From an uncultured virus (IMG/VR IMGVR_UViG_3300025617_001525) (Duplodnaviria > Heunggongvirae > Uroviricota > Caudoviricetes), in the IMG/VR virus record IMGVR_UViG_3300025617_001525: 20,000 bases of DNA. One strand, 5' to 3'. The translations under genes were made by a program, and so were the position numbers. This document shows positions 2,604 through 19,625 of this stretch, piece by piece. The notes beneath the pieces were generated by a model that worked only from the letters and a program-made list of their open reading frames with translations, did not search any database and was not told the origin of the DNA. How positions within the stretch are numbered: the first letter of the stretch is position 1; each line of letters opens with the position of its first letter.

Positions 2604-3674
2604 TTATTTTTGTAATTCTACTTCCTCCATTTTTGGAGAGAGTATACTTCCTATAAATGCTGTTATCAGATAAGGGTCCGAGTTAGATCCAGGTCTTCTA
2701 TCTTCTAGATATCCTTTCCATTCTTTGGCGGTGTCTATAGGAACTCTAATAGAAGCCCCTCTATCACTTACCCCCCAGGAGAATTTATCTATACTCTGTG
2801 TCTCGTGATTACCGGTTAATCTTTGGTCGTTATCAGATCCGTAAATTCCAATGGCTTCTGCATGTCTATCTTCAAGATCACTGAGGACCATCTCGAAATA
2901 ATCCTTACCACCGGTCTCCCTCATCCTTTCATCCGAGAAATTAACGTGCATACCAGATCCATTCCAATCTTCTTCTTTGCCCATTGGTTTGGGGTGATAA
3001 TCTACATTAACCCTGTACTTTTCGGCGATACGATTCAAAATAAACCTTGACATCCAAAGGTCGTCTCCAGCATTTTTATTTCCCTTTGAGAATACCTGAT
3101 ATTCCCATTGTCCCAACATAACTTCTGCGTTGGTTCCTGTGATGTTAATACCGCAAGACAAACAAGCGTCCATGTGTTCTTCAACTATCTCCCTTCCAGC
3201 ACTGTAAGGATGACCAACAGAACAATAGTATTTACCCTGTTTTTCTGGAGGATCGAAGTTCTCAAATCCGAGTGGTCTGTTTTCATTTTTATTGAACCAC
3301 CTTAGTACGTACTCTTGCTCAAATCCAAACCATTGGGTTTTTTTATCAATTGAAATGTCAGATCTGGTATTTGTTTTGTGTGGGGTACCGTCAGGATTCA
3401 TAACTTCACACATTACCAAATATGAAAACCCATTTCTCAATGGATCCTGATAAAGCTTTACTGGTTTTAGAATACAGTCTGAGGAACTACCTTCAGCTTG
3501 GTTTGTTGAACTACCATCGAAAGACCATTCTGGTATATCTTTAAGCTTTGGCATTACCAATGCTAGAGGATTTTCTACGTCGGCTGTACCAAAGTCCATT
3601 ACCTTAACTTTAGATCTTAAGTTAGGTTCTGGATCATATCCGTCTAACCAAACGTATTCAAGTTTAATTTTCAT
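2604..3674 (-). CDS. glnII: Glutamine synthetase type II
   Basis: 356 aa (GSII length). Motifs EYVWLDG..LRSK, WSFDGSST.QA, WFGFEQEY, NAEVM.GQWEYQ, DWNGSGMH.NFS, RLTG.HET, RGASIRVP, GYLEDRRP.SN.DPY. Confidence 0.95.
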   Translation of the reverse strand: MKIKLEYVWLDGYDPEPNLRSKVKVMDFGTADVENPLALVMPKLKDIPEWSFDGSSTNQAEGSSSDCILKPVKLYQDPLRNGFSYLVMCEVMNPDGTPHKTNTRSDISIDKKTQWFGFEQEYVLRWFNKNENRPLGFENFDPPEKQGKYYCSVGHPYSAGREIVEEHMDACLSCGINITGTNAEVMLGQWEYQVFSKGNKNAGDDLWMSRFILNRIAEKYRVNVDYHPKPMGKEEDWNGSGMHVNFSDERMRETGGKDYFEMVLSDLEDRHAEAIGIYGSDNDQRLTGNHETQSIDKFSWGVSDRGASIRVPIDTAKEWKGYLEDRRPGSNSDPYLITAFIGSILSPKMEEVELQK

Positions 3675-3960: not shown

Positions 3961-4344
3961 TTATTTATCTATAAAGAACATTTTAGCCAAAATACCAACA
4001 AGTGCGGAGAATATAATCCAGAGTGTTTTGGTCACAGTTCCTTTCCATTTGACAAGCTCAGTGTGTTCGAGAATCATTTCCTTGAATTCTTTCTCTTCTA
4101 TTTCCTGGACTTCCCTGAATTTGGTATTTTCATTAACCTTGACAATAACCCCGTCATCAGGATCCAGCAATTTTTTTTTTAGGTCCGATAGATCTTTCTT
4201 CATATCGGCCTGAGATTGCCTTAGCTCCTCAATGCTCATCTGTATGACCTTTAGCTCCCCATTAGGTAGCTTGCTTTTCATAGTGGACAACTCGTCAAGA
4301 ATGTCCCTCATAAGATCGGTTATCTGTTTTCCGTTATCTGCCAT
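3961..4344 (-). CDS. Coiled-coil protein with a single C-terminal transmembrane helix
   Basis: Heptad-like segment IEELRQSQADMKKDLSDLKKKL and terminal hydrophobic segment TLWIIFSALVGILAKMFF. Confidence 0.7.
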   Translation of the reverse strand: MADNGKQITDLMRDILDELSTMKSKLPNGELKVIQMSIEELRQSQADMKKDLSDLKKKLLDPDDGVIVKVNENTKFREVQEIEEKEFKEMILEHTELVKWKGTVTKTLWIIFSALVGILAKMFFIDK

Positions 4345-4645: not shown

Positions 4646-4921
4646 CTATTCTAGTATTGCACGGGTTACGTCATCGATATGGATGACAATATACTCATCT
4701 GATTCTGTAAAATGAACTAAGACTTCCTCGGAGGTCATACTTCCTAAGAGGATTGCTTCTTTCTTCTCGAAGATGAAAGAGTTTCCTAGATGACTTGGTT
4801 CTAACTTGGATCTTCTTATCCATTTACTTTGATTTCTTACGAACTGATCCCCGTAATACTTTCTCATAGAGTCAGTTGGCTCTTTTATTCTCCTCCTTCT
4901 TTTTCCTTTTAAACTTGCCAT
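4646..4921 (-). CDS. Hypothetical protein with a basic N-terminus
   Basis: 91 aa, KGKRRRRIK near the N-terminus, abuts genes on both sides. Confidence 0.65.
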   Translation of the reverse strand: MASLKGKRRRRIKEPTDSMRKYYGDQFVRNQSKWIRRSKLEPSHLGNSFIFEKKEAILLGSMTSEEVLVHFTESDEYIVIHIDDVTRAILE

Positions 4922-5869
4922 TTAATTAAAATATCCTTTTTGTTTTAAACTATCTAAGTGTTGTATGATCTTTTCCAATTCTTGTTCCCTTTTTTCACCA
5001 TGCAGTACTTTAATCAACCTCTTGTCCTTTGGTATTTTATAGAAATCCCCACTTAAGGTATCCCTTTCCACCTCGGTTTCGAAGAAGTGTTTTACTGTTT
5101 CTAACCCGTCGTTAATGTTTATGTAACTCATAGGAAGTCCACCACCTCCATATTTCCATATTAGAACATTCATGGGAGTTTCGTCTTGGAAAGGTGAGTA
5201 ATGATAAACATCGACAACCTTCCACATAACATTTAAGAACTCTTCCAGTATGACAAGGAAGTTCTTACATTCCTTGTTAAATATAAATAGGTTTCCCGTC
5301 CTGTACTCATCCCTTTGTTCTAGGTTAACCTGTAGGAATTGCATCAGTGGCCATTCTAATGTTTTGGTAAGGTCGCATTCCGGCCAGCATCCTTCGAAGG
5401 GGTTTCCTCTCATAACACCATTATCGTCAGGAACCATCACAAATTCATGGGGGCCTTTTGTTGCTAAAGGAACATTTTTAATACCATCAGAATAAGAAAA
5501 TATCTCATCTATATTTGGACAAGCAATGCTATCCCCATCGATATAGCAGGCCTCGTCATACCCCATGTCTATAACTTTCAGACAAGCTTCGCTTTTCCTG
5601 GTCATTACTTGGAAACTTCTCGGATTTCTTCTATTAACATAGAAATTACCATTCGAGGTGTCTTGGAAGTTTTCCCCATCCTCGTGGATCTTATAATCTA
5701 TTCTATGAAATGTAACACCATCTGGCATTTCTAATCCCGAATCAGAAGGGAAATAGTTTATGCAGAATATGTTGATGTCGTAATTAGAATAGAGCTTCAA
5801 ACTTTTCACCAGCCAAAGTGTAAGATAGTGATAATTTTCGGTTGTTATTGAAACATAGGATCTTCTCAT
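4922..5869 (-). CDS. Putative GT-A fold glycosyltransferase (GT8-like)
   Basis: N-terminal Y....L.KSL..YS, DxD motif YIDGD, QDETPMNVL (GT8-type QD..LN) and C-terminal HG.K. Confidence 0.7.
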   Translation of the reverse strand: MRRSYVSITTENYHYLTLWLVKSLKLYSNYDINIFCINYFPSDSGLEMPDGVTFHRIDYKIHEDGENFQDTSNGNFYVNRRNPRSFQVMTRKSEACLKVIDMGYDEACYIDGDSIACPNIDEIFSYSDGIKNVPLATKGPHEFVMVPDDNGVMRGNPFEGCWPECDLTKTLEWPLMQFLQVNLEQRDEYRTGNLFIFNKECKNFLVILEEFLNVMWKVVDVYHYSPFQDETPMNVLIWKYGGGGLPMSYININDGLETVKHFFETEVERDTLSGDFYKIPKDKRLIKVLHGEKREQELEKIIQHLDSLKQKGYFN

Positions 5870-7407
5870 TTCTTTATCTGATATAATGCTATCTCTTTTT
5901 GACTAGAATCGAACACTCTTATTATGTCATTGTTTTGGAAGTTGTTGCTAGAAATCCAATATAACAATGTACGGTCTACGCTTATACTATCCCATTTAAG
6001 TATTTGATCATAACCCCTATACAGAACTAAAGTTATATCACCCAAAGAATCCACAAGTGATTTGTAATATACCCGATCTCCATCTAATTCCCACTTTCCT
6101 ATTTTTCCACCCACGAAGGGTTTAAGCAAAGAGATAATTTCAATCCTTTCATTGGTGCTGTATGATGTCACATGTGCTATAAAATCACCAGGCTCCCATA
6201 GGTTTTTATTTAGGTGAGGGAATGTATCAATCATATAAGGATTCTTTGTGGGCCAGAATCTGTTAAAAAGTTTTTCCTCTACCAAACCAATGCCATCTCT
6301 CCATCTATCTTTTTTAGAAGATATTCTTATCTGCCTCATTTCGTGATCAAACTCATTTATGTCCATCCCTTCGGGCCAATCTGGAGATTCCCATATTTCT
6401 GCCAAGAAATCGAGGGATTCCTGACAATTTTTTATTAATATCTGGGATGACATTATGTTATCCGTGTAAGGACTTCCGGTTAGATTATTATCAGGGGCTC
6501 CTCCTCCTTTGGGGAGTATAATAAACTTATCTTCCTGTATGAAAGACTCTAATTTAATAGAGGGGTTCATAATTAAGCAATCACAGTCAATGAAGAAAAA
6601 CCATTCAGATTCCCCCTTTTCTATAAGTTGCCTAAGGACCTTTATCTTTCCCCATTGAGGATTTCTCCCTTCTAGAAAATCATCGTCTATCCGGAATCCT
6701 ATGTGGTTATATCCATTCAATTGACAATAATCCTTAAAATTACTGTTTATTGTATGATCAGCCATTCTAGAATATCCCTCATCATACATAGATACAACAG
6801 ATATGTTTACACCTCTATCAAAGATAAAATTTTCTAAAATATCTGAGGTCAATTTGTAACCCAATGAGATGAGTCTGTTTTTCAGTTTATTAAAATCCTC
6901 ACTTGCATCATGCGCATAATGACCTTCACAATACTCAAATGCTATCTTATCAGGTAATACTTTTCCATAATCTAGCAATGAGTTTATTATCTCAATATCA
7001 ATACCCTCTAAATCTGTTTTAAATATGCCAATCTCCGTAATTGAATATTCTTCTATAATTTCACCTATAGTAACAGTCCTAACTCGTATCTCCTCATATA
7101 GATGTTGTAGGTTTCTTTCTTCCAACTCTCTTAATACAAATGGGTGTGGAGAACCCAACCTTGAACAGGCTCTTAACCAATTCGGGAGATTATAATCATT
7201 TACCTTTTTTTCGGGTAGGGTGTAAATGATGTCTTCCCCACTAGAGCTTGAAACAACCGCATTTAGCTTCTTTACATTTGCTCTATTTGGTAGTCGATCA
7301 AGATACTCTGGAATAGCTTCTATGCTCAGTCCACTTTCTTCATCCTTGCATGATTGGAGTAGGGTGGTGAAATCACACGTTCCTATTTCTATAAAATCAT
7401 ATCTCAT
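5866..7407 (-). CDS. Fusion of an FkbM-like SAM methyltransferase, a GT34 (GMA12/MNN10)-like glycosyltransferase and an unknown C-terminal domain
   Basis: N-terminal DFIEIGT.DF, SIEAIPEYL and KTDLEG.D are FkbM-like. The central part has YCQLNGY, PQWGKIKVL, FFIDCDCLIMN and WEPGDFIAHV, as in GT34. Confidence 0.72.
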   Translation of the reverse strand: MRYDFIEIGTCDFTTLLQSCKDEESGLSIEAIPEYLDRLPNRANVKKLNAVVSSSSGEDIIYTLPEKKVNDYNLPNWLRACSRLGSPHPFVLRELEERNLQHLYEEIRVRTVTIGEIIEEYSITEIGIFKTDLEGIDIEIINSLLDYGKVLPDKIAFEYCEGHYAHDASEDFNKLKNRLISLGYKLTSDILENFIFDRGVNISVVSMYDEGYSRMADHTINSNFKDYCQLNGYNHIGFRIDDDFLEGRNPQWGKIKVLRQLIEKGESEWFFFIDCDCLIMNPSIKLESFIQEDKFIILPKGGGAPDNNLTGSPYTDNIMSSQILIKNCQESLDFLAEIWESPDWPEGMDINEFDHEMRQIRISSKKDRWRDGIGLVEEKLFNRFWPTKNPYMIDTFPHLNKNLWEPGDFIAHVTSYSTNERIEIISLLKPFVGGKIGKWELDGDRVYYKSLVDSLGDITLVLYRGYDQILKWDSISVDRTLLYWISSNNFQNNDIIRVFDSSQKEIALYQIKK

Positions 7408-8199
7408 CTAGATGTTTTTTTGTTTTATGATTGCCTTTTGGCTGTTAAAACAATGGAAAGAAACTATGTGCATTGCATAGTAGCCCGGAACTACATTTTC
7501 CCAAGACGGGTCTCTCTTTTTCATTTGGTCTATAACCCACATTACCTTCCTGCAAGCAAGGTAAATGTCATCTCTAAAATGTCTCATGATGTCACAAGAT
7601 CTTATGAAATAAGATATGTGTAGAAAATCTCCCCTCCTCATGAAATGATATCCAATAGTACATGGAACTCTTTCATTGTGGTGAGCTCCAGTATCCTCTG
7701 GAAACCAAATGGGAAGAAATGCTTGCCTAGTAAATGGCTCTCTTTCTAAAAGATCTAAGACATCATTTAAATCTCCGTATTCATATCTTATACCCTTTAA
7801 GACCTGCTTGGTTAGTTTGCCAGTGGAGTTATTTATTGGTGCTTTTTTTGGCCAGATTCTTTCGGGGTAAGTGTGGGAGAACTTTTCTTCCTTCTTAAAT
7901 TCGCTATTTTTGTTCTGGTTAAAAGGCCACCATTCATTAGAAGGTGGAGGATTGAGTGGCAATCCACCAACTCTTTCATCTAAATGATCATCTGCCCAGG
8001 GTAGATTTGGTTTTACTTCTTCAACAAGCTCTTCTACAGTGTGTGGAATAAACATTTGGAAAGAGTGGTTCATTACTTCCCACATGTCATCCGGGGATAC
8101 TACACCTTGCCACCTTTCGGTTTTTACGACATATCCATAATTATAAAGTCTTTCTTTTGACCACTCGATTGCTTCTGAAGGCTTGTAAAATGTTTTCAT
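7408..8199 (-). CDS. Thymidylate synthase superfamily enzyme, dCMP hydroxymethylase-like
   Basis: TRQA, catalytic VPC, RSCD and SFHCF motifs. RSCDIMRHFRDD places Asp where ThyA (RSCDVFLGLPFN) has Asn and T4 gp42 has Asp. Confidence 0.8.
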   Translation of the reverse strand: MKTFYKPSEAIEWSKERLYNYGYVVKTERWQGVVSPDDMWEVMNHSFQMFIPHTVEELVEEVKPNLPWADDHLDERVGGLPLNPPPSNEWWPFNQNKNSEFKKEEKFSHTYPERIWPKKAPINNSTGKLTKQVLKGIRYEYGDLNDVLDLLEREPFTRQAFLPIWFPEDTGAHHNERVPCTIGYHFMRRGDFLHISYFIRSCDIMRHFRDDIYLACRKVMWVIDQMKKRDPSWENVVPGYYAMHIVSFHCFNSQKAIIKQKNI

Positions 8200-9475: not shown

Positions 9476-11131
9476 TTAAGTCTTTCTAATGACTATATTA
9501 TTTATTACAAGAATATGGATTCCATTATTATAAAAACTATTTATGGCATCCGAAGGAGATTCAACCACAGGTTCTCCTCTTCCGTTGAATGATGTATTGA
9601 GTAAAAGAGGAATCCCAGACTTATCATAAAACTTGGAAATTAAGTCGTGATATTTCTCATTCATTTCTCTAGTTACTGATTGATATCTTGAGGTAAAGTC
9701 TATATGGGTTACTGCAGGAATTCTTTCCCTCCACTCTGGCTTTACCTTGGTTGTGATAAGCATATATGGAGAAAAACAATCAAGATCAAATATTTCTTTC
9801 CTGTGTTCCTCTAATACAGATGGAGCGAAAGGTCTATACCACTCCCGGTTTTTTATTTCCGAATTTATGTATCTCTCAGCCCACTTTGAAGATGGGTTGG
9901 CCAGGATAGATCTATTCCCAAGAGCTCTTGGACCCGTTTCACTCCCACCTTGGAACCAAGCTACAACTTTGTTTTCCATTAGTTCATCGCTCACTACATC
10001 CAGAAGATCTTCCCAAATTGGGTATTCTTGGAAAGACAAATTTGATATAGCAGTTCCCCAAAAATCTTTCAATACCTCTTCGTTTGTGTATGTTTTGCCA
10101 AGATATGGTTTCAGATAATTACCTTTGGGTAGATTCTGACCATACCAGGCACACCCCAGTGGTATACCGCTGTCATCAGCTGACGGAACATAATATTTGT
10201 TCTCGAATAGATCTGACTTCTCTATGAGTTCGTTCGAATTACAGTTTAGAAAGGATCCACCAGATACACAAAGATTTTCTGAATTAGTAATCTCTTTTGA
10301 TTTTTCAGTGAAAAACATAAGTAACCTTTCTTGCTCCCTCTGATAAACCCCGGCGGCGTTAGATTTTGTCTGGAAGTCTGAGAGATAGCTAACATCAGGG
10401 TCTATGAAACCATGAGGAATATAGACATCATTTTCCAAAAATTCTACGAAATCCGGGTGTTTTCCAACATATTCGGGATCAGCATATGAGGCAAGACCCA
10501 TCAATTTCCCAGCTTGCCAATTGTTTTTGTCTGCTTCATAAACAAGCTGCATTGCGCCAGTCCCATATAAAATACCAACAGAAACCCCACCACCCTTATA
10601 ACCTTCATCGGATAGTTTAATCCACTTTTTATATTTTTCTTCATACCCACCATCTTTGAAATGATAGATAGTTACCGCTTCTGCCAACCTGACATTAGGT
10701 TCTAACGAATCTGGATCTTTAGTAAACCAATCATTAGCTCTTGAACCCGGTGCTACTTCACTACCAGAAGCATCAACTACTAAAACAGCAGACTCTTCAA
10801 AGCCAGAACTGTAAAAAGTGCTGTAAGCATGTGCTAAATGATGTGGTATAAATTCAAGCTTATTACCTGATATACCTGTTATTTCTTCGAATTGCTTACT
10901 ATAATCATCGGGAAGTTCCGTGGTAGTATAAATGAATCTATCAATGTCGGAAAAGCTAATACCTGCATTCTCCACACAATATCTAATTGAAAGCTCCGGG
11001 AGTTGATATTTATAAGCTCCGTCATTTTTAATTCTGCTTAATCTTTCTTCAGTAATTCCTATCAACACTTCTCCGTCCCTGATGAGGACAGATCCCATGT
11101 CGTGACCAACTGATATTCCCAGTGAAATCAT
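9476..11131 (-). CDS. O-carbamoyltransferase, NodU/CmcH/TobZ family
   Basis: 551 aa. GHD, EERLSRIK, HHLAHA, GKLMGLASY, SGG..LNC..N, WFQG..E.GPRALGNRSILA.P, RPFAPSV, LLNTSFN. Confidence 0.93.
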   Translation of the reverse strand: MISLGISVGHDMGSVLIRDGEVLIGITEERLSRIKNDGAYKYQLPELSIRYCVENAGISFSDIDRFIYTTTELPDDYSKQFEEITGISGNKLEFIPHHLAHAYSTFYSSGFEESAVLVVDASGSEVAPGSRANDWFTKDPDSLEPNVRLAEAVTIYHFKDGGYEEKYKKWIKLSDEGYKGGGVSVGILYGTGAMQLVYEADKNNWQAGKLMGLASYADPEYVGKHPDFVEFLENDVYIPHGFIDPDVSYLSDFQTKSNAAGVYQREQERLLMFFTEKSKEITNSENLCVSGGSFLNCNSNELIEKSDLFENKYYVPSADDSGIPLGCAWYGQNLPKGNYLKPYLGKTYTNEEVLKDFWGTAISNLSFQEYPIWEDLLDVVSDELMENKVVAWFQGGSETGPRALGNRSILANPSSKWAERYINSEIKNREWYRPFAPSVLEEHRKEIFDLDCFSPYMLITTKVKPEWRERIPAVTHIDFTSRYQSVTREMNEKYHDLISKFYDKSGIPLLLNTSFNGRGEPVVESPSDAINSFYNNGIHILVINNIVIRKT

Positions 11132-11406: not shown

Positions 11407-11769
11407 TTAAAATGTTTTAATCAATCTCTTTGCAGTTGAATAGTTTGTCGCTAAAGGGATATTGTGATGATCACATATCCTCATTAACATCTGTACATCA
11501 GGTTCGTGAGGATGTTTCCCCAATGGATCCCTAAAAAAGATTATCAGATCTATTTCATTCTGAGATGTCATTGCAGCAATCTGTGCATCACCCCCATGGG
11601 GACCAGATAACAATTTTTCCACATCCAGTCCTGCCTGTTCAACATGTGTCCCAGTCGTTCCAGTCGCAACCAGTTCCACGTCTTTCCTCTTAAAGAATTC
11701 CAGATTGTGCATAATGAAAGAAACCATGGATGCTTTCTTTCCGTCGTGTGCTATTATCGCTATTTTCAT
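11407..11769 (-). CDS. mgsA: Methylglyoxal synthase
   Basis: IAHD.KK, ATGTTG, SGP.GGD.QI, FF.DPL, PHEPDV..L.R.CD and P.ATN motifs. Confidence 0.95.
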   Translation of the reverse strand: MKIAIIAHDGKKASMVSFIMHNLEFFKRKDVELVATGTTGTHVEQAGLDVEKLLSGPHGGDAQIAAMTSQNEIDLIIFFRDPLGKHPHEPDVQMLMRICDHHNIPLATNYSTAKRLIKTF

Positions 11770-12155
11770 TGTTGTGAATCTCCTCTCCAGACTCTATACG
11801 AGTCGGAATCAAAATGTTCTGTTGAAACCTCATAAACCACTCCGTCCTTCAATGCTTCCAGCTGGTGTGGTTGACCAGGTCTTTGTCTTACTGAATCCCC
11901 CACTTTAAGTACCTGCTCATTAACTTCTGCAGTTTCTGTGTCTATCCATCTGTAAATGAATTCACCCTCCTGAACGTACCAGGTCTCGTCCTTTATCATA
12001 TGGTAATGCATCGAAAATTTCGCACCACTCTTAAAGCAAAGAAGTTTTCCACAATAGAGTTCATTATTCTCGAATATAATTTCGTGTCCCCAACCTTTGG
12101 GAACATTGCAGCTTGGACATTCGACTGCGTTTATAACTTTAGGTTTTTCCATCAT
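11766..12155 (-). CDS. Cupin-domain protein (sugar isomerase-like)
   Basis: PKGWGHE, SMHYH..KDETWYV..G, PG..H and EVST cupin motifs. Confidence 0.8.
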   Translation of the reverse strand: MMEKPKVINAVECPSCNVPKGWGHEIIFENNELYCGKLLCFKSGAKFSMHYHMIKDETWYVQEGEFIYRWIDTETAEVNEQVLKVGDSVRQRPGQPHQLEALKDGVVYEVSTEHFDSDSYRVWRGDSQQ

Positions 12156-12619: not shown

Positions 12620-13453
12620 TCAAGAATTTGATACCGCTCTGCCCTTCATTTTTTCCCAGTCTTTCTCCGGTCTGACTTCAAGATTAGTTTTCCAACCTCC
12701 CTCGATGGAGTTCATCTTCAAGCCGTTTGATTCCGCAAATTTCAATATAGCATTCACATCTTTCGGAAAGCATGTTCCACCATACCCTAAACTTCCGTCA
12801 GGACCGGGAACATGCAAATGTGAATCTCCGATTCTACCATCAGAAGCAAATCCATTTAAGGCATCTTCCCAATTAACACCTATTTCATTTCCAAGTCTAT
12901 AGAATTCATTCATTATTGAAACCTTTGTAGCAAAGAATGTGTTATTCATGTACTTTGTATACTCTGCTGTCTTACTGTCAGTAAGAATGAAATTTCTATT
13001 CATGAACCTGTCCTCGAAGAGAGATTTTACCCTTTCTGTTAACCTATGATCTCCACCTAAGATTATCCTTGCCTGCGTTAACATATCTAGCTTAGCAGTT
13101 CTTTCAGTTAAGAATTCCGGGGAAAAAATTATCGCAAAATCTGGATATTTGTCTCCCATCAATTCAGTTGTTCCTGGGAGGACAGTTGATTTGATTATGA
13201 ATATCTGATCTACACTTGGAGATATAGTCCCAAAGAAGTTTTCGATGAATGAAAGGTCTTGTGTACCGTCCATCCTCATTGGTGTTGGTAAACAAACAAA
13301 GATAAATTCTTGCTCCAATGTTTCCTCCAAAGTGTGAGTTGCTTTAAGAGGGTCAATATCATATATTCTCACGTCAGCAATGGGAGAAAAAGCAAACGCC
13401 TGCGCTTCACCAACGAACCCGTTTCCTATAATACCTACTTTTTTCTTTTTCAT
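12620..13453 (-). CDS. UDP-glucose/GDP-mannose dehydrogenase family protein, short form
   Basis: GIIGNGFVG, CLPTP, KSTV.PGTT, SPEFL, K...N...A.K and GYGGTCFPKD (catalytic Cys). At 277 aa it lacks the C-terminal domain. Confidence 0.88.
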   Translation of the reverse strand: MKKKKVGIIGNGFVGEAQAFAFSPIADVRIYDIDPLKATHTLEETLEQEFIFVCLPTPMRMDGTQDLSFIENFFGTISPSVDQIFIIKSTVLPGTTELMGDKYPDFAIIFSPEFLTERTAKLDMLTQARIILGGDHRLTERVKSLFEDRFMNRNFILTDSKTAEYTKYMNNTFFATKVSIMNEFYRLGNEIGVNWEDALNGFASDGRIGDSHLHVPGPDGSLGYGGTCFPKDVNAILKFAESNGLKMNSIEGGWKTNLEVRPEKDWEKMKGRAVSNS

Positions 13454-14292
13454 AATAATGGTTTCAATTTTTGTGCCTCCTCTTGGAGGTTCTTTTTATA
13501 GTGTTTTATCCTTTCGTTTATTCCAAATTTTGGAGACCATCCTGGTAAAATTTTTTCTGTATCGGCACAGGTAAAAAATTGATATCCTTCTGGGATAGCT
13601 GAATGGTCAGTAAATGTGTATGGTATATTTAGAATATCCATAAATACCTCAAACCCAATTGGTGTTGTTGTTCCAATATCAAAGGTTCCTGTTGAACCTA
13701 TTTCCATTGCGTGTATGTTTGCGTTCACGATGTCGTCGACATGAATAAAGTCTCTCCTGGGATTTCCTGGAAAAAGTTCCATATACTCTATTGATTTCTC
13801 AATGTGGTATTTTTTAAAAGCCTGATAAGCTACAGAAGCCATCCGACCCTTTCTATCTTCGCCAGGACCAAAAACATTGAAGTACCTTAAAGAAATTGAA
13901 TTCTCATAGGTGTTAACGTATTTCTCTCCAGCATATTTTGACCATGCATACAAGTTAGCTGGCAATTTTCCATTAGTGCCGTAGTTAGCAGCAGAAGAAG
14001 AATAAACTATCCTTTTTCCATATTTATTACAGAGATCACACAACTTCCTTGTAAATTCAAAGTTGAGATGAAGCATGTAATTTACATCCTTTTCCAGTGT
14101 GTCTGAGCAGGCACCCACATGGAAAACACCATCAATACCTTTATCGAATATACTGATAAGGTGAGGTTCGCACTCAGAAGACATAGCATCATCTATTTCA
14201 AATCCAATTACAATATGTCCTTTGGATGTTAGAAGATCCTTGAGTCTTTTACCTATAAACCCCCGATGACCGGTTACTAAATAAGTTGACAT
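13450..14292 (-). CDS. gmhD: NAD-dependent epimerase, ADP-L-glycero-D-manno-heptose 6-epimerase-like
   Basis: TG..GFIG, FHVGACSDT, YSSSAANYG, P.N.YAWSK, LRYFNVFGPGEDRKGRMASVA and RDFIHVDD, typical of RfaD/HldD/GmhD. Confidence 0.82.
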   Translation of the reverse strand: MSTYLVTGHRGFIGKRLKDLLTSKGHIVIGFEIDDAMSSECEPHLISIFDKGIDGVFHVGACSDTLEKDVNYMLHLNFEFTRKLCDLCNKYGKRIVYSSSAANYGTNGKLPANLYAWSKYAGEKYVNTYENSISLRYFNVFGPGEDRKGRMASVAYQAFKKYHIEKSIEYMELFPGNPRRDFIHVDDIVNANIHAMEIGSTGTFDIGTTTPIGFEVFMDILNIPYTFTDHSAIPEGYQFFTCADTEKILPGWSPKFGINERIKHYKKNLQEEAQKLKPLL

Positions 14293-16298: not shown

Positions 16299-17390
16299 TT
16301 AGTTTCCACTATGAATGCTAGAAATGAAATCCGAATCCACTGATTTAAGAAATTCTACATAGAGATTAATGGCGCTTTGAACGTCTTTTTTGTGAGCCAT
16401 CTCAACGGTTGTATGCATATATTTTAAAGGAGTTGCTAATATAGCAGTTGGAATGTTTTCCAAGAAAAATGCCATAGTATCATTTCCATAAGACCCAACT
16501 GTAAGCTGTAGGGGGATGCCATTATCTTTAGCTACTTCTCTAAGCTTAGCATTGATCTTGCGGTGGTTCTGTGCAGTGTATTCAACACATGGCCCCTTCC
16601 CACCTTTGACGTCTCCATCTTTTGCTTTTTCTATTCTAGGTGTGTTTGTATTATGACAAACATCATGAACTAGAGCAAGATCAGCATTGAGCTTTTTTGC
16701 AACCATTTTTGCACCATACAAGCCAACCTCTTCTTGCACTGAATTAACAACTATCAGATTAAATGGGAGATCTATTTTATCTTCACGGATTCTTCTCGCA
16801 ACCTCAGCAATAATATATCCTCCTATTTTATTATCCAGTGATCTTCCTACCCAATAATCTCCAATCTCTCTAAGTTTATCGTTGAACGTCACGAGACACC
16901 CAACTTCTATTTCTGCGGATAATACATCATCCTTGTCTTTCATTCCAACGTCTATCCAAAGATCGTGTTGGTCTGGACCCTCCTCAACATAACTTTTCCT
17001 TGTGTGTATTGCTGGCCATCCAAAAACTCCGGGGATTTTTAAACCTGTATGTGTATGTATAATCACGTCCTTAGAAGGGGCTATCATATTGTCAGATCCT
17101 CCATGTCTCTTGACCCTGATATATCCCTCGTCCTCTATATGAGTTACTATCCAGGCAATTTCATCGCAGTGTGCTTCTATAACAATGTTGGGACTGTTGG
17201 GATTTCTAAGTTTTCCATCTCTTGAATATAATGTTGCAACAGCAGTTCCGTATGGATCCGTTGTAACCTCGTCTACATATTTCTTTATCTCCTGAACCCA
17301 TATTTTTTGTCCTTCAGACTCTTGTGCAACCGGTGCGTATGCATTTAAATATCTGTAGATAAATGGGATTTCTGCAAGTTTATCTTCCAT
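16299..17390 (-). CDS. M42 family (TET/FrvX-like) metallo-aminopeptidase
   Basis: EAHCDEI, GG.D, DLWIDVG, SLDNKIG, VQEEVGL.GA, HDV and P.KYMHT; metal ligands present. Confidence 0.92.
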   Translation of the reverse strand: MEDKLAEIPFIYRYLNAYAPVAQESEGQKIWVQEIKKYVDEVTTDPYGTAVATLYSRDGKLRNPNSPNIVIEAHCDEIAWIVTHIEDEGYIRVKRHGGSDNMIAPSKDVIIHTHTGLKIPGVFGWPAIHTRKSYVEEGPDQHDLWIDVGMKDKDDVLSAEIEVGCLVTFNDKLREIGDYWVGRSLDNKIGGYIIAEVARRIREDKIDLPFNLIVVNSVQEEVGLYGAKMVAKKLNADLALVHDVCHNTNTPRIEKAKDGDVKGGKGPCVEYTAQNHRKINAKLREVAKDNGIPLQLTVGSYGNDTMAFFLENIPTAILATPLKYMHTTVEMAHKKDVQSAINLYVEFLKSVDSDFISSIHSGN

Positions 17391-18209: not shown

Positions 18210-18374
18210 TTAGTCCATATCTTCTTTCGAAGGGTGGTTGTTTGGTCTTCCCATGAAGTCAGTTCTTTTACCCTCCCTTTCTTTGTCGTGTCCGCATTTA
18301 AAAAAAGAGGATATAACAGCTAAAACAGTAAAAGCACACATTATAAGTAAACCAAGTAGTTCAATTTCAATCAT
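18210..18374 (-). CDS. Small single-pass membrane protein (54 aa)
   Basis: Below the ORF-track cutoff. Manual translation: MIEIELLGLLIMCAFTVLAVISSFFKCGHDKEREGKRTDFMGRPNNHPSKEDMD*. Its start overlaps the HNH stop (ATGATTGA) and it fills the gap. Confidence 0.7.
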   Translation of the reverse strand: MIEIELLGLLIMCAFTVLAVISSFFKCGHDKEREGKRTDFMGRPNNHPSKEDMD

Positions 18375-18723
18375 TCTTAATTCTATTTCTTTTTAGTAAC
18401 TCCACTCTAGAGATTGCCTCTAGATTTTCTGGAGAATCATTATACTTATCACCATCTATATGATATATGACATATCCGTCGGGGATGGGACCAAAATTTT
18501 CTTCATAGACCAACTTAGGTCTTCTTTTTCTTTTACCCACTCCATCCCAATAATGGACGCAGTCGTTTTTTGGTTTTTGCACACCACCCTTCCAGCTAAC
18601 GTGGGATTCACCCCGGTGAGATTCACCCTCTTTAAAGGTAGTCTCCGGACTTGGACAAAATCCCTTCCTGCCCTTATTCCACGGTGTTTGTCCTTTCACA
18701 AATTGTCCTTTATTATTTCTCAT
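18367..18723 (-). CDS. HNH endonuclease with N-terminal NUMOD3-like DNA-binding repeats
   Basis: GQFVKGQTPWNKG, FKEG, WKGG, then VYE..FGPIP.GYVIYHIDGDKYNDSPENL. Confidence 0.82.
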   Translation of the reverse strand: MRNNKGQFVKGQTPWNKGRKGFCPSPETTFKEGESHRGESHVSWKGGVQKPKNDCVHYWDGVGKRKRRPKLVYEENFGPIPDGYVIYHIDGDKYNDSPENLEAISRVELLKRNRIKND

Positions 18724-18733
18724 ATTTTATTAG

Positions 18734-18805
18734 TAGCCCCGCCAGGAATCGAACCTGGATCAAAAGTTTAGGAAACTCCCATTCTATCCGTTGAACTACG
18801 GGGCC
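18734..18805 (-). tRNA. tRNA-Arg (anticodon CCU)
   Basis: GGCCCCG TA GTTC AACGGATA GAAT G GGAGT TTCCTAA ACTTT TGATC CAGG TTCGATT CCTGG CGGGGCT A folds as a cloverleaf with A20 and a TTCGA T-loop. It is followed by CTA, so CCA is not encoded. Confidence 0.93.
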
Positions 18806-18812
18806 TTTTTAT

Positions 18813-19625
18813 CTAAAAACTCTCTTTAACAATTTCTGGTATTTCAATTAAACCACTTGATTCAGCCAATGTCGATTTGAAATGATTTACAAGCTCTTCT
18901 TCCGAAAAAATCTTATTGTGTGGTGCAAATGCTGACTGCCATGGATTAATAGAAAGATTTTGGTATCCTTTTTTCTTTTTGTTGTGGAGATTTAAATCGA
19001 AATAGTGCAAATGTAAAAGATACAGACCATCTTCGTGATTTGGTTTTTCAGTTTCGTTTATTCTGTGTGGATTTCCTTCTTCATCCTCGAAATAAATATT
19101 ATCATATTTACATTCGTGAAATCCAGGGTTCCAACCCATAGGTACTTTGGAAATTAGAGTCTTATCATATCCCCGGTCTTTTAGCATATATTTTCTCTGC
19201 AATAGAATTGGTTTATTAAGATCTATAGGATCCTCCTCATCAATATTATGATAAACATTATATCCATGGGTCGTAAAAAATCTTTTCTCAGATCCACTAA
19301 TGGAAGCTAGAAAATCACCTAGAGTTCTTCCATCTTTGGGAACTATAAATTCATCAACATCCGTGTATATTACATATTCATACATTTCAATAAGTTCTTC
19401 GTGCAAAGAATTCACCCGATTTGCTATTGAAGCATAATCTAAAGAGTACTCAAGGTGTAGAGGAATTATGTTACACTCCAGATTTTCTGTACTACCGTCT
19501 ATAGAATCATTATCCAAAACATAAATATCCTTCATCGGGATGTGCTTTGAATAATATCCAATCCACAGTGGTAAAAAGTGAGATTCATTTTTGACACATG
19601 TTATAATAGCGAATTCTCCTTTCAC
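18813..19625 (-). CDS. Glycosyltransferase family 2-like protein
   Basis: TCVKNE..FLP.WI.YY, YVLDNDSIDGS, YTDVDEF, GFH and LLHLH motifs; GTG start. Confidence 0.85.
   Translation of the reverse strand: MKGEFAIITCVKNESHFLPLWIGYYSKHIPMKDIYVLDNDSIDGSTENLECNIIPLHLEYSLDYASIANRVNSLHEELIEMYEYVIYTDVDEFIVPKDGRTLGDFLASISGSEKRFFTTHGYNVYHNIDEEDPIDLNKPILLQRKYMLKDRGYDKTLISKVPMGWNPGFHECKYDNIYFEDEEGNPHRINETEKPNHEDGLYLLHLHYFDLNLHNKKKKGYQNLSINPWQSAFAPHNKIFSEEELVNHFKSTLAESSGLIEIPEIVKESF

Follow-up and report, generated by a model that had tools for sequence, protein, structure and literature searches.

The window, meaning the whole stretch of 20,000 nt analysed here, is part of the genome of its phage, and statements at genome level are drawn from the records of relatives. 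It contains an ORF of 263 aa, designated TS1, whose product has the fold of thymidylate synthase (TS). Its features are given below by position and strand.

7408–8199, minus strand: TS1, TS-fold enzyme of predicted dCMP type, 263 aa (ORF, profiles, AlphaFold model and alignment)
5866–7407, minus strand: FkbM-methyltransferase/GT34 fusion, its start abutting the TS1 stop
4922–5869, minus strand: ORF of 315 aa following FkbM–GT34, with no Pfam, PHROG or NCBIfam match
4646–4921, 3961–4344, 2281–2598 and 1584–1850, all minus strand: small ORFs of no family, the first three without a Pfam match
9476–11131, minus strand: NodU/CmcH-type carbamoyltransferase, two genes and 1.3 kb upstream of TS1
11407–11769, minus strand: methylglyoxal synthase, a host-type metabolic gene
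2604–3674 and 16299–17390, both minus strand: glutamine synthetase and M42 aminopeptidase, host-type metabolic genes
11766–12155, 12620–14292 and 18813–19625: sugar island, comprising a cupin, UDP-glucose dehydrogenase and epimerase, and a GT2, respectively
18733–18805, minus strand: tRNA-Arg(CCT), adjoining an HNH endonuclease gene at 18367–18723, minus strand

The window neighbours of TS1 are not fixed partners. The most constant of them are the four small ORFs, which follow TS1 in 32–41 of about 42 jumbo-phage loci, probably as backbone synteny. The FkbM–GT34 fusion and the 315-aa ORF belong to a variable sugar-gene island and were rejected as partners, being absent from both complete genomes examined. 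The carbamoyltransferase, which keeps W..G.R at positions flagged as differentially conserved in PMC8670742, was likewise rejected: it occurs in only two of 40 related records, is not beside TS1 in the 86 % relative and is a 96-codon piece in the 87 %-identical relative L297. Methylglyoxal synthase lies near TS1 in 21 loci including the window, often just upstream; it was considered as the supplier of an electrophile and discarded on account of its absence from the complete genome G005.

The TS1 gene most probably comes from a T4-like jumbo phage, to judge from the gene order and length of related contigs, their Gp23/portal/gp32/PolB set and the marine origin of matching runs. The closest relatives are IMG/VR contigs of up to 434 kb that share the gene order and encode TS1 proteins 63–92 % identical to that of the window; one complete relative encodes the Gp23 capsid protein, T4-type portals, gp32 and PolB. 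Five public runs contained at least half of the stretch, all of them marine metagenomes and two of them possibly its source, and RNA contigs from one marine metatranscriptome covered parts of the TS1 gene, which is no measure of expression. The family is viral, GTDB genomes giving only eight loci, all on MAG contigs. It is also large: 3977 clusters at 90 % identity were matched, 91 phage records cover at least 80 % of the query, and the clade includes Muddy gp46. Cultured members, at 37–47 % identity, are Muddy, the Gordonia cluster CT phages, Zuko, Serbin and PMBT14. The window and five related contigs have a low CpG odds ratio (0.55–0.72) and too few CATG sites (0.63–0.81), and palindrome avoidance was mild; these statistics are non-discriminating, since the controls T4 and Xp12, whose DNA is modified, also avoid sites. 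A search of the full-text literature, which leaves most subscription papers outside its coverage, gave no study of modified bases in cultured members of the clade.

TS1 is a real, conserved TS-fold enzyme with a catalytic cysteine. It scored 19 bits against Pfam PF00303, under the cut-off of 24.3, and matched PHROG 160 with an E value of 3e-24. The AlphaFold model (pLDDT 80) gave only TS-family folds among the structural matches listed, namely AfhB (9iqu; Z 17.4, rmsd 3.2, 199 residues aligned), MilA (Z 16.6) and human TS (Z 16–17), whose scores are largely tied; MilA and AfhB were the top Foldseek matches, AfhB being first and tied with TS chains. The fold, the PC nucleophile and RSxD of the TS superfamily are present, together with an HxY-type motif in which Tyr is replaced by Phe. 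The dN/dS ratio against four orthologues was 0.023–0.033, indicating strong purifying selection, and D211 (121/121 close and 92/93 distant homologues) and H207 (121/121 and 85/93) are conserved, so the active-site changes described below are not due to chance. Mobile insertions, which we take to be intein-like at the catalytic Cys and LAGLIDADG-like before the HTY motif, were seen in the homologues P0122 (636 aa) and L062 and in P0133, P0163, P0165, P0172, P0180, P0184 and P0216.

Residues were placed by alignment with E. coli ThyA, T4 gp42 and the Xp12 TS, with which profiles to PDB chains and hhalign agree; this register is based on sequence and profile alignment and is firm for residues 143–251 but less secure over the N-terminal half. 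The following motifs were delimited.

7567–7602, minus strand: R200-S-C-D-I-M-R-H-F-R-D-D211, with D211 as the predicted cytosine reader (alignment and homologue census)
7660–7671, minus strand: R177-V-P-C180, with the catalytic Cys (alignment and homologue census)
7723–7728, minus strand: R158-Q159 (alignment, profiles and homologue census)
7867–7875, minus strand: H109-T-Y111 (hhalign and PMC6400193)
7447–7455, minus strand: H249-C-F251, the HxY motif with Tyr replaced by Phe (homologue census)
8005–8007, minus strand: N65, aligned in a lower-confidence register to the folate-activating Glu (gp42 E60/ThyA E58)

The initial annotation had described a TS-family enzyme with Asp at the specificity site, an HFRDD motif, His in place of a conserved Gly and an HxY motif reading SFHCF, and each of these features was recovered. 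D211 corresponds to ThyA N177 and gp42 D179 by sequence alignment, profile alignment and hhalign, and HFRDD closes the R200–D211 motif. H207 stands at ThyA G173/gp42 G175, and S247-F-H-C-F251 places H249 at H207/H216 and F251 at Y209/Y218 of the two enzymes. C180 is equivalent to C146/C148, and R200, S201 and D203 to ThyA R166, S167 and D169. The more telling changes were absent from that annotation: Arg177, His109, Arg206, the missing C-terminal tail and the AsnB-like gene of relatives. Arg177, three residues before the catalytic Cys (Cys-3), is invariant in 121/121 close and 93/93 distant homologues, at a position where ThyA has L143 and gp42 its water-activating D145. His109, in place of gp42 S94, was found in 86/93 distant homologues, and is followed at two residues' distance by Y111, the equivalent of gp42 Y96; R206 takes the position of gp42 F174. 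The chain ends 14 residues past H249, compared with 57 in ThyA, 63 in the Xp12 TS and 30 in gp42, and the ThyA-type C-terminal tail is absent. At the position of N65, in the lower-confidence register, Asn occurs in 121/121 close homologues. R158 keeps the R126 equivalent (deoxy type; Lys in MilA) and Q159 replaces the R127 equivalent. Also retained are D203 (Asp in 121/121 close and 90/93 distant homologues, where RB69 gp48 has Asn) and, in close relatives, R209, the equivalent of gp42 R177. The H147 position holds Thr/Ser, as in gp42 and MilA, and the acidic residues E75, E113, E168 and D169 (numbering of TS1 itself) are invariant. Small phages without AsnB carry the same Arg/His site.

The substrate of TS1, read from these residues, is very likely dCMP. 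Asp at position 177 is the tested determinant of dCMP (cytosine) recognition (PMC13326640, PMC6400193) and gp42 Y96 contacts the cytosine amine, N4 (PMC6400193); TS1 has D211 and Y111 at these sites. The suggestion made earlier, that the enzyme has a cytosine nucleotide as its substrate and does not make dTMP, is thus upheld, and a separate ThyA in relatives speaks for it too. The doubt then raised about the sugar can be largely withdrawn. K133 and A176 make MilA prefer CMP (PMC5175136), and both sites are of the deoxy type in TS1 (R158 and S201), so that the sugar is probably deoxyribose and CMP is an unlikely substrate. The change of Tyr209 to Phe takes away one 3′-OH contact.

TS1 is very probably not the dTMP synthase of its phage, because a separate canonical ThyA (Asn177, full tail) is encoded in nine of nine near-complete jumbo relatives; this gene, the presence of which had been put forward as a check, was found in 20 of 24 related records altogether. 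The 92 %-identical contig carries it some 12 kb downstream of TS1, past the edge of the window. Of four cultured small-phage members tested for ThyX, Zuko and Strzyga have it and Muddy and Serbin do not. It is accordingly very unlikely that TS1 acts on dUMP, whether as a redundant TS or as a uracil modifier with AsnB turning the 4-oxo group into an amine. Such a role would suit the dCMP deaminase gene, which is present in 10 of 10 near-complete genomes and beside TS1 in almost all loci, as in hmU phages, but it conflicts with the tested role of Asp177 (PMC13326640, PMC6400193) and with the ThyA or ThyX of relatives.

A dCTPase was the other gene to be looked for. A dimeric dUTPase/dCTPase-like gene was found in 21 of 24 related records at E values up to 0.01, although only one of these matches was over the Pfam cut-off; matches by a custom HMM and PHROG were stronger. 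The family presumably includes T4 gp56. Candidate parts of a T4-style pathway (pyrophosphatase, kinase and ThyA) are seen in the genomes of relatives, with the dCTP specificity being predicted.

The initial annotation had named hydroxymethyl, methyl and hydroxyl as possible products, a list that may be too narrow, as none of the three published signatures was found in TS1. Methylation relies on a hydrophobic residue at position 143 and on closure of the folate site by a C-terminal tail, and TS1 has Asp211 for Asn177, Arg177 for Leu143 and no tail. It also lacks the ThyA-like folate site and C-terminal tail of the Xp12-type methylase, a list of features taken here from the Xp12 sequence and not from a published definition, though Asp177 is present. 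We consider it distinctly unlikely that TS1 is an Xp12-type dCMP methylase forming 5mdCMP, with a deaminase feeding dTTP. The small-phage members do have the pyrophosphatase–TS–deaminase–PolA layout known for 5mdC-making enzymes, a likeness by layout; five of seven tested Asp177 TS enzymes in this layout made 5mdC (bioRxiv 10.1101/2024.12.05.627091). There is also a weak match of TS1 to a short methanogen TS model (E 2.8e-6), which shows that short TS-family proteins do get annotated as methylases. However, the Xp12 TS, to which TS1 is 17 % identical, keeps G173, HxY and its 63-residue tail, all lost in TS1, and has a DHFR-like neighbour, whereas no DHFR over the cut-off was found in 13 small-phage TS1 records; the jumbo relatives, moreover, already have ThyA.

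The signature of dCMP hydroxymethylases is Asp/Glu at Cys-3 together with Ser/Thr94, and either D145N or S94N abolishes the activity of gp42 (PMC6400193). TS1 has the gp42-type Asp179 and Tyr96 sites (D211 and Y111), but Arg177 in 93/93 and His109 in 86/93 distant homologues replace the two signature residues. That TS1 is nevertheless an ordinary dCMP hydroxymethylase, converting dCMP to 5hmdCMP with CH2-THF by means of other water-activating residues, with AsnB, TS2 (see below) and glycosyltransferases acting later or independently, is rather unlikely in our view. The invariant acidic residues E75, E113, E168 and D169 could serve as the base, and the absence of the tail, the Thr/Ser at H147, the top Foldseek matches and the retained D169 and Y96 equivalents would all fit, as would loci with neither AsnB nor TS2. 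The carbamoyltransferase upstream belongs to a class that acts on 5hmC (PMC8670742), but its rarity among the relatives and its fragmentary state in L297 count against a link, as does the loss of two residues each of which gp42 needs.

Hydroxylation tracks with D169N, and RB69 gp48, a hydroxylase, is flavin- rather than folate-dependent (PMC13326640); TS1 has D203 at this position. An activity of the AfhB or RB69 gp48 type, flavin/O2-dependent hydroxylation of dCMP, would explain the first rank of AfhB (Z 17.4, tied with TS chains), the loss of G173 (Val in RB69 gp48) and of the tail in both, and the glycosyltransferase-like genes flanking the window gene. Such an activity is highly improbable given the near-invariant Asp, and the two complete genomes examined both lack the flanking FkbM–GT34 and 315-aa genes. 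Lys133 and Ala176 of MilA/BcmA are likewise absent from TS1 (R158 and S201). The text of the supplements to PMC8670742 and PMC13326640 gave no match to the motifs of the TS1 clade.

Relative to gp42, then, the folate/water pocket carries Arg for D145, His for S94, Arg206 for F174, His207 for G175 and probably Asn65 for E60. The Gly at the H207 site is gone from the flavin-dependent RB69 gp48 as well. Lined by conserved Arg and His, it looks, from sequence, as if built for an anion. Arg177 could merely replace the lost phosphate-binding Arg21/Arg127, and the kept D169 and R209 are compatible with folate binding. The pocket appears rebuilt far beyond those of the tested relatives, and the product is probably an undescribed base.

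A clue to its nature may come from a partner gene. The window gene falls in the large-phage branch, which has a compact AsnB-like amidotransferase (450–470 aa) with intact glutaminase and ATP sites, keeping Cys2, NGEIFN, SGGLDS and GDGADELFGGY. It was found in 12 of 24 jumbo records, in nine of nine near-complete ones, and in seven of 31 further, mostly fragmentary records. It was not found in the three contigs closest to the window (32–43 % complete), so that its presence in the window's own phage is predicted from the other relatives. In both jumbo genomes inspected AsnB directly adjoins a dNMP-kinase-like gene, with AsnB and TS1 about 100 kb apart in jumbo genomes; the run kinase–AsnB–TS1 is contiguous in four loci of smaller T4-like phages, and its frames abut or overlap in the two of these loci that were examined closely. 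A reciprocal search from AsnB gave TS1 in one of 25 records, the only near-complete one, and carries little weight since the other 24 are fragments and the two genes are so far apart. CmoY, a phage AsnB homologue, amidates a cytosine C5 carboxylate, which an active-site Arg of CmoX binds (PMC12783734, where an untested glutaminase-bearing cluster is also mentioned). None of 10 near-complete jumbo relatives gave a match to PF00145, the C5-methyltransferase family with the CmoX fold, and the likeliest substrate of AsnB in these phages is therefore the TS1 product. On the tree the AsnB link is essentially confined to one clade, with L052 and L060 as outside cases. In these two loci a C5-methyltransferase-like gene (L052:10828, L060:4060–5178), which may be CmoX-like, lies between TS1 and AsnB, and it may be the real partner of AsnB there.

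AsnB could also act by supplying nitrogen. The exocyclic methylene formed from CH2-THF might capture a nitrogen nucleophile, either ammonia released by AsnB or an amino acid bound at Arg177/His207, to give 5-aminomethyl- or aminoacyl-methyl-dCMP. Amino-acid:DNA transferases set a precedent, as their capture of an amine at an exocyclic methylene on C5 is well established (PMC8989533); the glutaminase domain of AsnB is intact, and Arg replaces the water-activating Asp. The full ATP-dependent synthetase site of AsnB nevertheless implies a carboxylate substrate and the folate-activating Glu has apparently given way to Asn (121/121 close homologues), which makes this reaction unlikely.

Small phages show a different arrangement, in the order kinase, pyrophosphatase, TS2 (a second TS-fold protein), TS1, deaminase and PolA. 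TS2 keeps an invariant Cys, Arg and Asp, and its model (pLDDT 91) matched MilA, gp42 and AfhB at E values of about 1e-5 to 1e-6; hhalign of TS1 with TS2 and a PDB sequence search with TS2 gave nothing, the TS fold being seen by fold search alone. Among 74 further loci, TS2 was nearby in 32, AsnB in six, neither within the flank in 36 and both in none. Of 40 whole records, 13 have AsnB and 15 have TS2, with no overlap between the two sets; most of the TS2 matches had contributed to the TS2 model. As a partner in jumbo phages TS2 was rejected (absent from 24 records and, in a further search, from 20, seven of them common to both; a very diverged copy could escape). In two T4-like records (80 and 77 % complete) the kinase abuts TS1 and neither AsnB nor TS2 was found, so TS1 may work alone. 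Third TS-fold genes were observed in small phages, at L045:9298–9996, where the catalytic Cys is missing and position 177 is Asn, and at L210:7083–7883, the latter a second TS2 copy. A ‘QueC-like’ Muddy protein mentioned in PMC6884629 was not located in the Muddy annotation.

From the fold, residues and conservation of TS1 and the gene co-occurrence in its relatives we infer a substrate, cosubstrate, product and role for AsnB as follows. The explanation we prefer, with rather less than even confidence, is that TS1 is a dCMP C5 enzyme installing a carboxyl-bearing handle that AsnB amidates. As in T4, modification of dCMP, here at C5, would precede replication: the pyrophosphatase would remove dCTP, the phage kinase would phosphorylate modified dCMP, the phage polymerase would incorporate it and the separate ThyA would make dTMP. 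By homology, Asp211 and Tyr111 would hold dCMP while Cys180 adds to its C6, and the C5 carbanion would take an electrophile. The basic, rebuilt folate/water pocket suggests a C5 group other than methyl or plain hydroxymethyl, one that bears a carboxylate; candidates are 5-carboxy, or a small acid derived from an aldehyde or keto acid. The glutamine-dependent AsnB-like ligase of the large-phage branch would then turn the carboxylate into a neutral amide. More tentative is the wider possibility of a folate-independent TS branch that joins C5 of dCMP to a small anionic electrophile (CO2/bicarbonate, an aldehyde or a keto acid), followed by amidation by AsnB or processing by TS2, which in small phages such as Muddy would handle the carboxylate in place of AsnB. 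Among 147 shared genes scanned, no enzyme stood out as supplier of the candidate electrophile.

The modification of dCMP by a TS homologue is a known strategy, and recent work has extended the chemistry of the TS fold beyond one-carbon transfer, to flavin-dependent hydroxylation; the active-site signature of TS1 and the logic of its partners are undescribed in the literature searched. No study of a TS1-clade enzyme or of a TS homologue paired with AsnB was found in full-text literature, subscription papers being mostly outside its coverage. The clade is large and annotated plainly as ‘thymidylate synthase’. If the rebuilt pocket installs a new C5 group, this would be a new reaction for the TS fold and a new base in phage DNA, and if the anionic-electrophile reading is true, an undescribed cytosine analogue would occur in the DNA of many phages, with a bearing on restriction and CRISPR resistance, including that of the therapy phage Muddy. 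The question of the TS1 product is directly testable, since cultured members and an established E. coli in vivo assay exist.

Among characterized enzymes, TS1 resembles T4 gp42 (which works with gp56, gp1 and td) in the TS fold, the equivalents of the Cys, Asp179 and Tyr96 and the short C-terminus, and its relatives carry, as T4 does, ThyA, a dimeric pyrophosphatase, a dNMP kinase and a dCMP deaminase. It differs from gp42 in being only 17–19 % identical and in having Arg for D145, His for S94, Arg for F174, His for G175, Phe for Y218, Gln for R124 and probably Asn for E60; unlike in T4, an AsnB-like gene co-occurs and no glycosyltransferase is a fixed neighbour. With the Xp12 dCMP methylase and the deaminase-linked TS enzymes of MetaGPA it shares Asp177 and, in small phages, the gene layout, whereas the Xp12 TS has Asn at Cys-3, Gly173, HxY, a full tail and DHFR. 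AfhB (PDB 9iqu/9iqc), the top-ranked structural neighbour, and RB69 gp48 are similar in Asp177, the loss of G173 and the lack of a tail, but have N169 and an acidic Cys-3 residue where TS1 has D169 and Arg. The CMP hydroxymethylase MilA has the same fold, Asp at 177 and Thr after the Cys; its K133 and A176 (ribose preference) and Asp at Cys-3 contrast with R158, S201 and Arg in TS1. Within the clade itself, the ‘thymidylate synthases’ of Muddy (gp46), Gordonia cluster CT, Zuko, Serbin and PMBT14, in part PHROG 160, are 37–47 % identical to TS1 over most of its length, and an 11-residue active-site signature is identical in four aligned members; unlike the window branch, these Muddy-type small phages pair TS1 with the second TS-fold protein and PolA and not with AsnB. 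The closest analogy for the proposed chemistry is CmoX/CmoY of Synechococcus phage S-B43 (PMC12783734), which combines Cys–C6 chemistry, a C5 carboxylate, an Arg and amidation, although CmoX has a C5-methyltransferase fold and acts on DNA with Cx-SAM, whereas TS1 has a TS fold and would act on a mononucleotide.
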